From an uncultured Verrucomicrobiae bacterium (GTDB lineage: Bacteria; Verrucomicrobiota; Verrucomicrobiia; Chthoniobacterales; JAFAMB01): a stretch of 64,000 nucleotides of DNA. Shown one piece after another: positions 10,854 through 62,435 of this stretch. Every line of letters starts with the position of its first letter. The stretch's first letter is position 1. The position numbers and the translations under genes were made by a program. The notes under the pieces were generated by a model, which was not told the origin of the DNA, ran no database searches, and saw only the letters and a list, made by a program, of their open reading frames with translations. Location of the stretch: assembly GCA_963813025.1 (NCBI GenBank), contig CAWEXO010000008.1, positions 64,001-128,000 of the forward strand, written 5' to 3'.

Positions 10854-11288
10854 CGCGTAGCCGTGGACGGCCCCGGGACTGTCGGACTCTGGAAATCTGT
10901 AGCACGCGATCAACCGATTGATCGCGCGAGCGCTAGAGATCGTCTCAGAATGCCGCACTGTCCTGCGCCGGTAGGGCGAAAATTCAGAGAGTGTCTCGCA
11001 ACATGGCCTCGGCCCTGGTCCGGTAGGGCGAAAATTTATCCGAGCCTTAGTGAGGACTCGTTTGAGCCGGACATAAGGGGTGTGCCACCCCTCCAAGACG
11101 GCTCAAACAAGTTCTCGCTGGCGCTCGAATAAATTTTCGCCCTACCGGTCGTGGGTCAGCGGATGTTGCGAGACATTCTCTTCATTCGAGCCTTAGCGAG
11201 AACTTGTTTCAGCCGGACGCTTGGGTGAGCCACCCGCTCCAGATGGCTCAAACAAGTTCTCGCCTGGCGCTCGAATAAATTTTCGCCA
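10854..11288. repeat. GTAG-type REP/REPIN cluster A
   Basis: Palindromic units CCGGTAGGGCGAAAATTT..CGAGC..GTTTGAGCC / GGCTCAAAC..GCTCG..AAATTTTCGCCCTACCGG; homologous to clusters at 12962, 18725 and 62105. Confidence 0.9.
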
Positions 11289-11565
11289 TGTTGATTCAGA
11301 GTCATGTAGCGCAGCGGCTTCCCCCAGTGCGTTGCGCGCTCCGCTCCGGAGGAGCAGAAAGAGAATAGGGCCGGTGCTTTAGCGCCGGCATCCTATCACC
11401 GCCGCGGCTCGCGCCCCGTAGGGCCGCTCTGAGTAAGATCGCGGCGAGACGACCCTGCGGCGCACCGGTGCAGCCTCAGGAATACGCCCGAGGCCGTCCG
11501 CGGTACGCGCTCACGCGACCGCGCCTCCCGGTTGACCTGCTCCAGGACTGCACGCAACCTTCAGC

Positions 11566-16983: not shown

Positions 16984-17541
16984 TCAGGCTCGGCCCATGT
17001 ACGCGCCGGTCCGGGTATCGACCCGAATGCTCTCGCCCTCCTTGATAAAAAGCGGTACCTGCACCGTCTTTCCAGTTTCCATTTTGGCCGGTTTTTGCAC
17101 ATTCGTCGCACTGTCTCCCCGCAGACCTTCCGCCGCTTCCGCCACCTTTAGAACAACCGACGAGGGCAGTTCCACTTCCACCGGTTTTCCCTCGGCGTAC
17201 AAGACATCCACCGCGAGGTTCTCGGTCAGATACTGGCTCGAATCACCCAGCAACTCCGATGGCAAAGTCTCGCTATCGTACGTCTCCGGATCCATAAAGA
17301 CATAACCATCCTGATCTTTGTAACTGTACTCCAGCTTGCGCCGGGTAACGTCCACCAGTTCGACCGCTTCAGTCGAACTGAACCGGACATTGCTGGATTT
17401 GCCGCTCCGGATACTCCGAATCGTTGCCTGAACAAAGGCCCGCAGGTTCCCGGGGGTGCGATGTTGGACATCAAGAACAATGGCGACATCTCCGTGGTAC
17501 CGGATTGCCATCCCTTTTCTCAGATCATTTGCCGCAGCCAT
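16984..17541 (-). CDS. efp: Elongation factor P (Arg-type loop)
   Basis: HRTPGNLRAFVQ, RGDSA and VPLFIKEGE.IRVDTRTG.Y motifs. Confidence 0.97.
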   Translation of the reverse strand: MAAANDLRKGMAIRYHGDVAIVLDVQHRTPGNLRAFVQATIRSIRSGKSSNVRFSSTEAVELVDVTRRKLEYSYKDQDGYVFMDPETYDSETLPSELLGDSSQYLTENLAVDVLYAEGKPVEVELPSSVVLKVAEAAEGLRGDSATNVQKPAKMETGKTVQVPLFIKEGESIRVDTRTGAYMGRA

Positions 17542-17546
17542 ATGAG

Positions 17547-18527
17547 TTATAAAAGTTTTAGTTTCGTTAAATCCTGGGAATCGATTATTCCGACCGGCTG
17601 ATGATCGCTATTGATGACTATCAAATCGTCTATCCGATGCTGCTCAAGCACGTTGAGAACTTCAACCGCCAGCCGGTCTCCCTGGATGGTGACCGGGTGG
17701 CGGACCATGTAGCGCTGAACTGGTTGTTTGGCAACCGCGGAATCATGTTCAAAAGCGCGCACAAAGTCGCCGTGCGTAAAAATGCCGGCCAGACGACCCT
17801 CGTCGTCGACAATTACAGCAACGCCCGCGCGTCGCTCGTTCATCGCATGGAGCACGGTCAGGATCTCAACGTCCGGTCCGACCTTAGGCATCCGCGCTTC
17901 TCCCCGCATGACATCAGAAACTTTCTGCAAGAGTACTCGGCCCAGTCGGCCGCCCGGGTGAAACTTTGAAAAATCCTCCTGCCGGAATCCCCGGGCTTCG
18001 AGCAAAACCATGGCCAGCGCATCACCGAGGGCAAGCATGACCGTGCTGCTGGAGGTCGGGGTCAAGTTGAACGGACATGCTTCCTGGTCCACTCGACAGT
18101 CCAGGACGATGTCGCTATGCCGGGCCAAAGTCGACGAGGGATCGCCCGTAAAGCAAATCAGCCGAACGGCAAACCGTTTCAGCGACGGTAACACGTTCAA
18201 CAGTTCGGCGGTTTCTCCGCTATAGCTTAGCGCCAGGACGGCGTCGCCATCGCCCACAATCCCCAGGTCACCGTGCAATGCGTTCAAGGGGTTGAGCACG
18301 ACCGCGGGTGAGCCAGTGCTGGTAAGCGTGGCTGCCACTTTGTCCCCGATCTGGCCAGACTTACCGACACCAATCACGACAATCTTATGACCGGTTTCCA
18401 GTGTAGATTTGAGAAGCTCGACAGCTTCCGAGAATTGACTATTCAGACGGTTGGCCAGGCGCTCCAGCTCATCCCGCTCAATTTGCAGGACTGCTCGGGC
18501 ACGCTCGATATGAACGGAGGCGGACAT
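17547..18527 (-). CDS. kdsD: KpsF/GutQ arabinose-5-phosphate isomerase (SIS + CBS domains)
   Basis: GVGKSG, HGDLG, SYSGET, EACPFNLTPTSS and FHPGG.LG motifs, CBS pair. Confidence 0.93.
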   Translation of the reverse strand: MSASVHIERARAVLQIERDELERLANRLNSQFSEAVELLKSTLETGHKIVVIGVGKSGQIGDKVAATLTSTGSPAVVLNPLNALHGDLGIVGDGDAVLALSYSGETAELLNVLPSLKRFAVRLICFTGDPSSTLARHSDIVLDCRVDQEACPFNLTPTSSSTVMLALGDALAMVLLEARGFRQEDFSKFHPGGRLGRVLLQKVSDVMRGEARMPKVGPDVEILTVLHAMNERRAGVAVIVDDEGRLAGIFTHGDFVRAFEHDSAVAKQPVQRYMVRHPVTIQGDRLAVEVLNVLEQHRIDDLIVINSDHQPVGIIDSQDLTKLKLL

Positions 18528-18724
18528 TGCAGATAGAGTTGGGGAAGTTCGAGGAACTTCTAGGAAGGTCAAGCCTCCCGCGGAAAACTTATTTGAACCG
18601 GAGGTCGTGGAGTGTGCGGCTTCTCACCGCTTTGAGCCGTGCAAAGCGCGGCGTGGACCCGAAAGCAGAGAGCATATTGGAACATTCTTGGGCTCTGTGC
18701 TGGCAGGGCGATCCACCTTGGCGG

Positions 18725-18856
18725 ACGAGCGTCAGCGAGAACTTGTTTGACGTGTCCGCCATAGCTTCGCCGAACGAGGAGCCGTCTTGGAGGTGCGGCA
18801 CATCTCCTCTCCGGCTCAAACGAGTCCTCGCCAAGGCTCGGATAAATTTTCGCCCT
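18725..18856. repeat. REP cluster C, left part (interrupted by IS110; right part at 20180-20213)
   Basis: Matches the reverse complement of 11022-11128 apart from a ~30-nt insert at about 18750-18780. Confidence 0.9.
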
Positions 18857-18869
18857 TGTACCTTGCCCC

Positions 18870-19110
18870 ACCAATTTTTTTTCCCTTTTAAAGCCGCCCG
18901 CAAGGGCGGAACTCTGGAAGTGAAGAACTTGGCCGAGGAGGGTGGAAAACTGCCTCGCCCAGAGGTCGGTAGAACCTGTCCGGTAGATTAGTCCACCCTT
19001 CCTCGTGCCGCACCTGCATAAGACCGTACCGTATCTTAGGCCGTTCCAAACAGGGTTGGAACATAAGCCCGTGTTCACAAGGCTCTGTCAGCAGGCGCGC
19101 GCCCAAGCGC
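18870..19110 (+). ncRNA. Predicted bridge RNA (5' hairpin, target-binding loop, donor-binding loop); ends approximate
   Basis: Hairpin CCGCCC-GCAA-GGGCGG; stem 18934-46/18992-19005 encloses TCGCCC and GTCCGGTAG; stem CCTGC/GCAGG encloses ACCGTATCT and ACAAG. Confidence 0.85.
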
Positions 19111-19151
19111 TTCATCAAACAAAGAACCAATTCAACGCGAATTCCTCTCTG

Positions 19152-20162
19152 ATGAAAAAACGCTACTGCATGGGTATTGATATGGCAAAAGCAAGCTTTG
19201 ACTTTTGCCTGCTCTCCAAGAATGGCACTCGCCTGTGGCGGGGAAAGTTCAGCAATGATGCGACCGGCATTGGAGCATTTTTAGCCCAACTCCAGGCCCG
19301 CTCTTGGCCGCTCTCCCAGATCCACTTCGCCCTGGAAGCCACCGGGGTCTACGGGAAGAGATTGATCGCCGCTCTGCACCAAGCAGGCTTGGCGGTCAGC
19401 GTGCTCAATCCCGCCCAAGTCAAATACTTTGCTTTCTCGGTCCTGCGCCGCACCAAAAATGATCGGGTTGATGCGGCCATCATTGCCCAGTTTTGTCTGG
19501 AGCGAAAACCACTGGCCACTCGGCCGCTGCGCCCCCTTGAGGAAGAATTCAAACTGCTGGTGCGGGAGCGCGAAAGCCGGGTTGGCGAGCTCATCCGGGA
19601 ACAGAACCGGGTGAAAAAAGACCCTTACCAAATTGCGCTGCCCGAGCTTATCAGCCAACAGCGTGGCCAACGACTCGCCCAGCTCAAGAAAGAAATCGCT
19701 CAGCTGGAGTCGGCCATCTTCGGCTTAGTCGCGGCTGATCAGGCTTTAAGCCGCCAAAGCCAACTGCTGTGCTCTATTCCCGGCATTGCCCAGCTCACAG
19801 CCGCCAAGCTGCTGGCCGAGCTGGCCGGTAAAGAGTTCCAATCGGCTCGGCAGTTGGCGGCCTATGCTGGGCTGACTCCTTCTGAATTCCGTTCCGGTGT
19901 CTCGCTCTACGGCAAAACCACCCTGTGCAAAATCGGCAACCCTTTCCTGCGCAAAGCACTCTATTTGCCGGCCGCCGTTGCTCGCCGCTGGTGCAAACCC
20001 ATCCAGCAATGGGCCGCAGGTCTCGAGTCGCGCAAGCTCCACTCCCTGGCTATCCGCGGTGCCGTCATGCGAAAACTCCTGCACATCGCCTTCGGTGTTC
20101 TCGCTCACCAACAACCCTACAACCCTAACCTGGCCCGCCATTCCTTAAAGCAATGCCCTTGA
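19152..20162 (+). CDS. IS110 DEDD recombinase/transposase
   Basis: GIDMAK (D), LEATG (E), KNDRVDA (D,D), SIPGI, AYAGL.P....SG (catalytic Ser domain) and AVMRKL motifs; intact ORF. Confidence 0.96.
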   Translation: MKKRYCMGIDMAKASFDFCLLSKNGTRLWRGKFSNDATGIGAFLAQLQARSWPLSQIHFALEATGVYGKRLIAALHQAGLAVSVLNPAQVKYFAFSVLRRTKNDRVDAAIIAQFCLERKPLATRPLRPLEEEFKLLVRERESRVGELIREQNRVKKDPYQIALPELISQQRGQRLAQLKKEIAQLESAIFGLVAADQALSRQSQLLCSIPGIAQLTAAKLLAELAGKEFQSARQLAAYAGLTPSEFRSGVSLYGKTTLCKIGNPFLRKALYLPAAVARRWCKPIQQWAAGLESRKLHSLAIRGAVMRKLLHIAFGVLAHQQPYNPNLARHSLKQCP

Positions 20163-20164
20163 CA
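20159..20164 (+). promoter_or_regulatory. Outward-facing -35 box TTGACA in the IS110 right end; pairs with -10 TACCTT (18859-18864) on the circle
   Basis: Circle junction reads TTGACA-tccaagaccgtatCTtg (17 nt)-TACCTT. Confidence 0.8.
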
Positions 20165-20179
20165 TCCAAGACCGTATCT

Positions 20180-20213
20180 ACCGGAGTAGGGCCGAGGCCG
20201 GTTGCGAGACACT
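20180..20213. repeat. REP cluster C, right part
   Basis: ACCGGAGTAGGGCCGAGGCCGGTTGCGAGACACT matches the reverse complement of 10990-11024. Confidence 0.85.
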
Positions 20214-20272
20214 CCTTTCAGCAGAGCTGCCCTGCTTGATCTGCCGGGCTGAAGGCCTACAGTGGCAGACCG

Positions 20273-22171
20273 TTGACAACCCCAAACGAACAGCGTGGCA
20301 CGGTAACGCCGGAAGATCGTGCGAGCGACCGGTCTGAAGGTGTCCCGAGTTCCAAGTCACGAGTTTCGAGTTCCTGGTCTCGGCTTCGGGCCGAGCTGCA
20401 GTCGAGTCCGCTGCCGCCCGTATGGCTTTTCCCATTGTTGCTGCTGATTTTCTCGGTTGGCTACTACAGCTCTTACGCACTCTCCGGACTGGACCTGCAG
20501 GGCGAAGGCGGCACGATCGGCGTTATCGCAATGCGGCTCAACGCGGGCGCGCGTCCGATCACCGATACGTTTCTCGGTTACAACCTCCTTTGGTTTGCGC
20601 CGATAGCCCTTCTTTTCCAGGTGTTCGGGCCGAGCTATCTGGCGATCAAAGTCTTCTTCTTTGCGCTGTGCACGGTAACCGGCCAGCTCAGCTACCGCGT
20701 TTTGTTTCGCGCGACTGGCCGTCCGTTACTCAGTCTTACGGGCGCTCTCATCGTGGTGCTCGTCCCGGGCATGCAATTCCGGAACTACATGGCGTTCCTG
20801 GCCATAACCAACATGCTCGCCCTGCTGGAAGCGTTTGTTTTCGAGCAAGCCACGTTTTGGCACCGACTGACGTGGGTAGCCGCCTCCGCGGGTTTCGTCG
20901 CACTCACCTATCTTTTCCGGATCGATCTCGGAACCTTCTTTTCCGTGCTACTCGTTGGAGGCGCGGTCCTGAACTTACTTCTTGGGAGCGGCGCACTCAA
21001 ACCGCGCGTCTGGGCGACCTGTGGTGCCATCCTTCTGCTCCCGGCGATGTTTGCCCTTGTGCATTGGCCGGTTGATTGGTACGCCCGGGCCAGGGGGTTC
21101 GAAGCTGATTTCTGGGCGCAGTACGGTCAATGGTGGACCGAAATCGAAAGCCGGGCAGTCGTGGCAATCCAGCACCTCAAACCGGGGCCGGCCACTTCTT
21201 CGGCAGGGCCGGTGGCCCCTCCAATTGTTGCGCCGCACCCGCCAGGAGCAGCGGTCGGCGCACCGGCTGGCGACCGAAGCACCCGAGCCTTACCTGATCC
21301 CGACGAGATGCTCCTGGCGCGGCGCGCCAAACAGCGCGAACTGGCGTTTCTGCTTTACGCACCGCTCGTTTCGAGCTTGTCGATCCTGATTGTCGCCCTC
21401 ACGCTGAGTCTCAACGGCCTGCTCCGCCAGAACGACCGGCAAAAACAAGCTGGCTTCTTTCTTCTGCTGGCGCTCGGCTCCGCACTCACTCTCTTTCCCC
21501 AATATTTCTTCTTCCGGCCCGATCCGCCGCATCTGAGCGAGTTGATGGCGCCGTTCGTGATTGTCCTGGTCTACTGTCTGGCGCTCACCCTGACCTGGAT
21601 TGGAAGACAGCATAGCCGTCAGCTGCGCTTGGCTGCGGCTCTCTGGGCGTTATTCTTATGCTTTCACCTCTGGATTTATACCCGGTACGGCGTCAACCAG
21701 CCTTGGATGGGAGCGATCGCCATCAAAAAACCGGGGGAAAAGCGGGTCGAGTTTGCGAACCAGGTGATCGCTTATCTGCCCGGCGAGACCAGAGCCGAGT
21801 ACGAGCGCCTTTATCAGGTAATCACCGATCATTCCGGATCGAGCGATTATGTCGTAAGTTTTCCTTACTCGCCCATGATCAACTTCATGACGAACCGGCG
21901 ATCTTACAGGTACAACCTGTATGTGGACAATTCGACTCGTCCGCTGGATTTCGATCGCACGGCGATCGCGGAGATCGAGCGGTATAAACCGGCCGTAGTT
22001 GCAATCGACGATGTCGCCATGAACGGCACGCCCGGTTCACGCTTCAGCGCATGGGCGGCGCCGACACTGGAATACGTACAGAGTCACTACCGGTTCGGGG
22101 GTCGATTTGTGCGGACGGATTTGTACATCCGGCCGGAGGAGGGCAAGAAGGACGGGCCGGGGAAGCAATGA
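20273..22171 (+). CDS. Multi-pass membrane protein, possibly a GT-C (ArnT/PMT-like) glycosyltransferase
   Basis: About 11 hydrophobic segments, acidic first loop (EGG), soluble C-terminal domain. Confidence 0.45.
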   Translation: MTTPNEQRGTVTPEDRASDRSEGVPSSKSRVSSSWSRLRAELQSSPLPPVWLFPLLLLIFSVGYYSSYALSGLDLQGEGGTIGVIAMRLNAGARPITDTFLGYNLLWFAPIALLFQVFGPSYLAIKVFFFALCTVTGQLSYRVLFRATGRPLLSLTGALIVVLVPGMQFRNYMAFLAITNMLALLEAFVFEQATFWHRLTWVAASAGFVALTYLFRIDLGTFFSVLLVGGAVLNLLLGSGALKPRVWATCGAILLLPAMFALVHWPVDWYARARGFEADFWAQYGQWWTEIESRAVVAIQHLKPGPATSSAGPVAPPIVAPHPPGAAVGAPAGDRSTRALPDPDEMLLARRAKQRELAFLLYAPLVSSLSILIVALTLSLNGLLRQNDRQKQAGFFLLLALGSALTLFPQYFFFRPDPPHLSELMAPFVIVLVYCLALTLTWIGRQHSRQLRLAAALWALFLCFHLWIYTRYGVNQPWMGAIAIKKPGEKRVEFANQVIAYLPGETRAEYERLYQVITDHSGSSDYVVSFPYSPMINFMTNRRSYRYNLYVDNSTRPLDFDRTAIAEIERYKPAVVAIDDVAMNGTPGSRFSAWAAPTLEYVQSHYRFGGRFVRTDLYIRPEEGKKDGPGKQ

Positions 22172-62104: not shown

Positions 62105-62435
62105 GCGTAGCCTTGGGCTTGTCGGACTTTTGGAAGTCTGTAGCACGCCACTAAGCGATTGGGCGCCCGAACGCTTAGAGATCGTCTCAGAATGCCGCAC
62201 TGTCCTGCGCCGGTAGGGCGAAAATTTCTTCCAGCATTAGCGAGAACTTGTTTGAGCCGGACACTTGGGTGAGCCACCCGCTCCAGATGGCTCAAACAAG
62301 TTCTCGCTTGGCGCTCGAATAAATTTTCGCCCTACCGGCGCAGGACCAAAAACGCTTTGGGACTCTCGAACCTTAGCTCGATTGCGCACGCTACAGATTG
62401 CCAAAGTCGGACAGAACCGAAGCCGTGCGCGCTAC
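62105..62435. repeat. GTAG-type REP/REPIN cluster D, nested ~330-bp palindrome
   Basis: Inner GTCCTGCGCCGGTAGGGCGAAAATTT / AAATTTTCGCCCTACCGGCGCAGGAC; outer arms shared with 10854-10985. Confidence 0.9.

Follow-up and report, generated by a model that had tools for sequence, protein, structure and literature searches.

Elements of the IS110 group typically have a long left end and a short right end, and bridge RNAs were predicted in 2024 for most of them, according to the portions of the IS621 literature on which we draw (PMC11208160 / PMC11208158). Circles of IS110 elements are described as carrying a promoter that is split across the joined ends (Durrant 2024, PMC11208160, in the part used here). 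For IS621, the corresponding passages of Hiraizumi 2024 (PMC11208158) name residue S241 of the transposase and report that, once strands have been exchanged, the two bases 3' of the right target guide (RTG) and of the right donor guide (RDG) form pairs with the other DNA. IS621 strongly prefers guides that pair with both bases of the core, and a filter for 'CT core guides' in the methods, in the sections available to us (PMC11208160 / PMC11208158), implies that exceptions had been met with in nature. ISPpu10, an IS110 element of Pseudomonas putida, has all its insertions at copies of a single sequence that is conserved, lies between genes and has a stem-loop 5' of the paired site, as stated in the part of that report consulted (10.64898/2026.03.19.712850). 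The IS621-type system is already well known, and so is the targeting of REP-like repeats. Here we describe an IS110-group element from a Verrucomicrobial genome and conclude, with a probability of roughly 0.93, that its left end encodes a genuine IS621-type bridge RNA aimed at its own genome's repeat and that the element is apparently active. The support computed here comprises the anatomy of the element, the specificity of its insertion sites, the covariation of guides with flanks, the covariation of the structure and the homology of the recombinase, while we infer transcription of the bridge RNA, its binding by the recombinase, and catalysis of recombination from the mechanism of IS621.

The element is an insertion sequence of 1,323 bp at 18857-20179 on the plus strand of the window (the whole 64-kb stretch of DNA analysed). 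Its ends were set by comparing 12 two-sided insertions with 95 empty sites of the same genome, and by convention the right-hand core CT is counted in and the left-hand core CT left out. The features on which the comparison with known systems first depends are the following.

19152..20162, plus strand: gene of the 336-aa recombinase; domains DEDD (RuvC-like) and Tnp
18850..18856, plus strand: target left half TCGCC and core CT, the same at 12 of 14 places and matching the left target guide (LTG)
20180..20184, plus strand: target right half ACCGG, following the right end at 12 of 14 places and complementary to the RTG

The recombinase matches PF01548 (9e-32) and PF02371 (5e-22), and its residues 5-325 align both with the IS621 transposase (8wt6, E 2.1e-46) and with a second solved homologue, the ISCro4 transposase (PDB 9t56, E 2.9e-44). 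Kept in the 8wt6 alignment are GID (D10), EATG (E62), NDRVD (D104 and D107, forming DxxD) and RSG (S248), and the motif residues D10, E62, D104, D107 and S248 are invariant in 16 relatives. As in IS110-group recombinases, a DEDD (RuvC-like) domain stands at the N-terminus of the protein and a Tnp domain with the catalytic serine at its C-terminus, and the proposal of the sequence-only reading that the recombinase is intact is borne out by a 336-aa frame with both domains and the IS621 catalytic motifs. The non-coding left end is long (295 nt, 18857-19151), the right end extends only 17 nt past the stop codon (20163-20179), and there are no terminal inverted repeats, again as in the IS110 group. 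To the left of the element, the minus strand of 16984-18572 encodes two proteins whose translations, judged by eye, resemble elongation factor P (185 aa) and a sugar isomerase of the KpsF/GutQ kind (341 aa). The genome is unusually rich in IS110-type elements: it contains 40 IS110 DEDD-domain matches in several distinct score classes, of which the family of this element makes up only about 8.

The insertion specificity of the element can be read from its own genome. The assembly (4.42 Mb, 16 contigs) holds 20 matching places, including seven full copies at 99-100% identity. At 12 of the 14 bridge-RNA copies or places examined, both junctions are canonical (TCGCCCT/TGTACC on the left, TATCT/ACCGG on the right); the left junction is present at 13 of the 14, the additional one reading TCGCTCT. 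One copy is cut off on the right, and one place is a fragment without ends. The joined empty site TCGCCCTACCGG (the 12-mer TCGCC-CT-ACCGG) occurs unoccupied 95 times in the genome against an expectation of about 0.5 by our own arithmetic for a 12-mer on both strands, and five of these exact empty sites lie within the window. The dinucleotide CT is common to donor and target: an empty site has it a single time, an insertion has it at each of its two junctions, and it is the shared core, the usual dinucleotide. Only 12 of the 95 empty sites fall in a stop-free frame of at least 200 codons, compared with 379 of 500 random positions. The repeat that contains the site has a conserved left arm of about 50 nt and often occurs as inverted pairs, also with 35-nt inverted arms. 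Since the site is mostly intergenic, repeated and palindromic, the term 'REP' is justified in a broad sense. The element ends, the CT core and the repeat as target, all proposed beforehand from the letters of the window, thus held in the own-genome copies and empty sites. The target itself had been given as TTTCGCC-CT-ACCGG; its part TCGCC-CT-ACCGG stands, but the guides described below specify (C/T)TCGCC-CT-ACCGG. A C at target position -7, which would match C18954 of the LTG, is found at 3 of 9 main-family insertions and at 12 of 95 empty sites, numbers too small to speak of a preference.

Several further observations concern the repeat. It forms clusters of alternating orientation at 10960-11290 and 62210-62340 of the window. 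Directly 5' of the target half-site, in the left arm of the repeat, a 6-pair hairpin (CGAGTC...GGCTCG) is followed by a T-rich run (18821-18849). Variants of the repeat show joint C to T and G to A changes at possibly pairing positions (TCC/GGA versus TTC/GAA, by eye).

The left end contains the parts of a bridge RNA in their expected order. Every motif reported in the sequence-only reading was checked as a string and found where it had been placed, and the predicted RNA can be laid out as follows.

18870..19103, plus strand: predicted bridge RNA, its 5' end deduced from the putative junction promoter and its 3' end approximate
18894..18909, plus strand: 5' stem-loop CCGCCC-GCAA-GGGCGG, 6 pairs (CCGCCC 18894-99, GGGCGG 18904-09), nearly invariant in 42 sequences
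18931..18946, plus strand: target-binding-loop basal stem, 5' strand, partner 18992-19009, with compensatory changes at all 16 pairs
18954..18960, plus strand: left target guide (LTG) CUCGCCC, target left half and core C, same sense
18963..18977, plus strand: mini-hairpin AGGU-cgguaga-ACCU between the target guides, arms 18963-66 and 18974-77, 4 of 4 pairs compensatory
18980..18986, plus strand: right target guide (RTG) CCGGUAG, complementary to CT-ACCGG
18987..18988, plus strand: target-loop handshake guide AU, complementary to donor positions 6-7 (AT)
18992..19009, plus strand: target-binding-loop basal stem, 3' strand, partner 18931-18946
19010..19024, plus strand: donor-binding-loop basal stem, 5' strand (GC, CCUGC, GAC), partner 19087-19100
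19028..19036, plus strand: left donor guide (LDG) ACCGUAUCU, the same sequence as at the right end, 20171-79 (core included)
19043..19062, plus strand: donor-loop inner hairpin GUUCCAA-acagggu-UUGGAAC, arms 19043-49 and 19056-62, 7 of 7 pairs compensatory
19077..19081, plus strand: right donor guide (RDG) ACAAG, complementary to CT-TGT and the reverse complement of CTTGT at 18855-59
19082..19083, plus strand: donor-loop handshake guide GC, G complementary to target position 7 (C), the second base not
19087..19100, plus strand: donor-binding-loop basal stem, 3' strand, partner 19010-19024

The core of the first stem is formed by CGAGGAGGGTGGA (18934-46) and TCCACCCTTCCTCG (18992-19005), which make 13 pairs with T18999 bulged, and that of the second by CCTGC (19013-17) and GCAGG (19091-95). 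Within the first loop, the LTG consists of (C)TCGCC and the core C, TCGCCC lying at 18955-60, and the next base, A18961, faces the core T in a mismatch. The left guide had been called short, and at 6-7 nt it is, but the second core base is left unpaired. The right guide had been called long, on the strength of GTCCGGTAG at 18978-86; this string is made up of GU (18978-79) and the RTG, and since the GU is near-constant among relatives, the programmable part is reduced to 5 nt plus the core (CCGGUAG). The second loop matches the element's own right and left ends around the core. Its left guide motif ACCGTATCT is found in the 64-kb window only at 19028-36 and 20171-79, where 0.15 occurrences would be expected. 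The donor had been likened to that of IS621, and agreement extends to 7 of the 8 donor positions named in the portion of the PMC11208158 text used for comparison. A covariance model of the RNA (R1), whose construction is given below, scores 187 bits at 18928-19105 of the window. An Rfam scan of 18000-21000 returned no match at E <=1; Rfam 15 may hold no bridge-RNA family.

How such an RNA could be expressed is suggested by two further motifs at the ends of the element.

20159..20164, plus strand: TTGACA in the right end, candidate -35 box of a circle-junction promoter, read from sequence
18859..18864, plus strand: TACCTT in the left end, candidate weak -10 box, 3 of 6 consensus positions

In the joined ends, simple arithmetic places TTGACA 17 bp from TACCTT, and TTGAC is kept at an equal distance from the right end in relatives. 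A sigma-70 scan of the integrated left end found no site, which is what a promoter created by the joining of the ends would predict. These motifs are candidates for a junction promoter that would drive the bridge RNA. The motif of the joined right and left ends of a circle gave no match in the own assembly, and no circle junction was present in the contigs of three DNA runs over 18700-20350. The public runs that contain this stretch include none of RNA. The one contig that skips the element was considered as a sign of excision of the window copy and rejected, as it differs at 5 other letters and the loose ends run into other copies of the repeat, so that it shows paralogous empty sites.

The next question is whether the left end is an RNA with a conserved fold and open guides. 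The left end (about 295 nt) folds better than 200 of 200 shuffles (z -2.85), and its three basal stems have unpaired probabilities of at most 0.08. Across 42 distinct sequences, RNAalifold recovers the 5' hairpin, both basal stems and the mini-hairpin with 11 compensatory pairs. It also pairs bases inside guides (CC/GG in the LDG; AGCC/GGCU around the RDG); we rejected these pairs, which show no compensatory change and 7 broken cells at one pair. MAFFT alone misaligned the donor-loop inner hairpin, and for this reason a covariance model was built for realignment from 17 sequences with a hand-trimmed structure, which realigned 75 matches, 67 of them distinct. Double (both-side) changes occur in this alignment at all 39 proposed stem pairs, and 94.7% of cells are paired compared with 41-52% when partners are slid by 1-3 columns. 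None of 500 shuffles attained the observed values. Being fitted to the model, the alignment leans towards the structure, although the slid controls still lie far lower. G-U pairs are frequent in these stems, which fits an RNA read from the plus strand, since G-U pairing is strand-specific and points to RNA. The two subfamilies of the own genome illustrate the same point at the donor-loop stem, where CCUGC/GCAGG in one is replaced in compensatory fashion by CACCUU/AAGGUG in the other; the 5' strand of this stem also undergoes compensatory changes across relatives. A search of 90 sources with the model gave 55 matches at E <=1, 43 of those below 0.01, and placed the same RNA a short way upstream of the gene for the recombinase even where the proteins share only 35-46% identity, in distant relatives from Cyanobacteria, Chloroflexi, Wolbachia, Methylomonas and others. 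The left end thus has the 5' stem-loop together with the two stem-closed internal loops of an IS110-group bridge RNA, supported by covariation.

The guides themselves had been expected to be looped rather than paired. This is so for the most part in RNAalifold, but thermodynamic folding of the naked RNA predicts them to be only partly open, with mean unpaired probabilities of 0.63 (LTG), 0.38 (RTG), 0.68 (LDG) and 0.66 (RDG), such that the RTG is largely paired. We do not count partly paired guides as a refutation, since in known complexes the protein holds the loops open. The window copy alone carries G18962, where 13 sibling copies have A, and in its minimum-energy fold this G lets CCUC pair with GAGG, covering part of the LTG; the left end also has three further private differences. 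These peculiarities would suit an explanation in which the family is a genuine bridge-RNA insertion sequence family but the window copy is crippled and a passenger rather than a source of insertions, for example by sequestration of its left guide through G18962 or by interference from its other private substitutions. We consider this improbable, since the open reading frame is intact and retains the catalytic motifs, the guides, the stems and both ends are identical to those of the siblings, and the extra pairing comprises 4 bp and is only partly populated, most LTG bases being unpaired with a probability of 0.46-0.94. Moreover, a relative (L125) has G at this position too. We therefore favour the reading in which the window copy itself encodes a presumably functional bridge RNA.

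If the first loop carries guides, these should change together with the DNA in which related elements reside. Among 8,000 scored proteins, 3,183 relatives of the recombinase were found at E <=1e-20, the closest with 64-81% identity. We fetched 80 loci from genomes and 80 from metagenomes, 58 of the 160 having a left end alignable by BLAST. The alignment combines the window copy with 57 of these, as one (L160) was dropped for a match of only 42 nt. Across these relatives the stems stay while the guide segments vary, and the flanks vary together with the guides, so that homologs with other targets carry other guides. The RTG matches its own right flank at 5 of 5 positions in 15 of 25 distinct pairs, compared with 14 of 582 cross-pairings (mean matches 4.24 versus 2.67), and the LTG matches its own left flank at 7 or more of 8 positions in 10 of 27 pairs, compared with 34 of 678 cross-pairings. 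All rows were kept in these statistics, poor fits included: the RTG fits at only 2 of 5 positions in L131 and L124 and at 3 of 5 in L022/23/25, L118, L119 and L138, and left flanks are aberrant in L028, L125, L149 and L153. The first-loop guides thus match the target halves and covary with the flanks, with the exception of the LTG A opposite the core T; at this position 20 relatives have A (12), T (3), C (3) or G (2). The GU before the RTG (18978-79) is near-constant in relatives with very different targets, and of the 12 right junctions in the own genome only 1 has a flank that it matches. A few relatives do match at 7 of 7 positions, and at a single locus (L123) a change to GC goes along with a matching change of the flank; the GU extension of the RTG may pair opportunistically.

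One set of relatives deserves separate mention. Six of the fetched loci (L022-L027), all from a single Verrucomicrobiae assembly, carry a related element, with three full left ends and five readable right junctions. From the right guide of the full left ends (GUUAGCUAG) one would expect AGCTA, whereas ACCTG or ACCTT stands at the five right flanks, so that one position is a C-C mismatch and another a G-U wobble. Either the guide is mismatched by nature, or it mutated when the copies had already spread.

The donor side behaves differently, its motifs being conserved rather than variable. Even so, the LDG form ACCCUAUCU pairs off with right ends ACCCTATCT, G changing to C jointly in guide and right end, and in relatives an LDG ACCGUGUCU faces ACCGTATCT, with a G-T wobble allowed; the LDG ends in A in 6 of 27 cases. 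The handshake guides also follow the rule known from IS621: of 25 guide sets, 23 have AU as their target-loop handshake. In the donor loop, the first handshake base is able to pair with target position 7 in 22 of the 25 sets and with the element's own donor in none (0 of 25), and the second with target position 6 in one set (1 of 25). Handshake guides are therefore complementary to the non-cognate and not to the cognate DNA, in the donor loop for the first base only. Conserved donor-side motifs taken alone could be protein-binding repeats, but the notion that the left-end matches to ends and target are DNA-level features without any RNA guide (protein-bound sub-terminal repeats or remnants of old insertions) is very hard to maintain when the guides of the target side vary in step with DNA beyond the element's ends, the covarying stems often contain strand-specific G-U pairs, and the solved IS621 complex, whose transposase is a homologue at E 2e-46, is RNA-guided. 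Tested against the own-genome copies, the 57 related left ends with their flanks and the structural covariation of homologous left ends, the original assignment of a target loop and a donor loop holds.

We propose that the bridge RNA acts as it does in IS621. Excision would join the right and left ends and so bring TTGACA to 17 bp from TACCTT, from which an RNA of about 230 nt would be transcribed. This RNA would fold into the 5' hairpin and two stem-closed internal loops, and two loop-bound recombinase dimers would bring circle and target together, with strand exchange at the shared CT. The predicted outcome is insertion at TCGCC-CT-ACCGG, a site in the mostly intergenic palindromic repeat present in about 100 copies in the genome.

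The own genome also holds derivatives of the element. Two non-autonomous copies of 1,010 and 1,011 bp (C15:123618-124627 and C9:218161-219171) are 99.4% identical, share an internal deletion (element positions 546-850) and sit at two different target sites; shared-deletion derivatives at different target sites suggest mobilisation in trans. Their subfamily is a second one, with 82-90% identity to the main subfamily, and has a full bridge RNA whose left guide starts with UU and not CU, and in which a 630-bp copy (C12:154618-155247) carries a further deletion. Another locus (C14:420615-421123) is listed with the non-autonomous derivatives. In one copy (L181, C9:67089-69145), element positions 297-1011 are replaced by about 1.45 kb with an IS3-family gene pair (HTH_Tnp_1 at 1.7e-11; rve at 5e-21 with HTH_21). 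At another locus (L182, C4:5744-5912), 169 nt of bridge RNA stand as an orphan that lacks the ends of the element. This fragment has a right guide with a substitution, and its 5' boundary lies exactly in the left-guide DNA, the TTCGCC of the repeat being fused to the TTCGCC of the guide; it could stem from a microhomology deletion or from illegitimate recombination at a half-site.

A wider scheme for the Verrucomicrobial clade can be put forward only tentatively, and we think it rather unlikely in full. It would combine a trimmed layout, in which the bottom-strand guides read the first core base only, with a specificity topped up by the hairpin and T-run of the target and with deletion derivatives reduced to bridge RNA and ends, each with a slightly different left guide, moved in trans by full copies. 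The trimmed layout is suggested by the A opposite the core T in 12 of 20 LTGs and by the LDGs that end in A (6 of 27).

As a bridge-RNA ortholog, the element has comparatively good support; it comes from a Verrucomicrobial lineage of soil, and it bears on how far core pairing can relax. With a compact target of 12 bp, about 95 natural landing sites that are free and natural guide variants by the dozen in its relatives, it is useful raw material for genome-editing bridge recombinases. That it is an uncharacterised ortholog, as had been supposed, is plausible: no paper in the literature collection searched combined 'bridge RNA' with 'Verrucomicrobi'.

The general picture of IS110 elements is unchanged by this locus, which in most respects resembles IS621 of E. 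coli. The two recombinases are homologous over their full length, and both elements have a long left and a short right end, a 5' hairpin followed by a target loop and a donor loop, and a CT core. The handshake rule is shared to the point that only the first base of the donor loop pairs, as in wild-type IS621 according to the part of the source used, and so is a target in a repeated extragenic palindrome. The motifs at the two ends would, once joined, give a split promoter like that of IS621 (palindromic target and split promoter are both described in the passages of Durrant 2024 cited above, PMC11208160). The differences lie in a protein identity of about one third (by eye), a left guide of 6-7 nt compared with 9 in IS621, an unpaired second core base, a right guide of 5 nt plus core, another target sequence and a host from the phylum Verrucomicrobiota. 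A homologous solved transposase is likewise known from ISCro4 (PDB 9t56). The hairpin and T-run directly 5' of the target (18821-18849) recall ISPpu10, a likeness drawn to the description of that element in the part of its report cited above.
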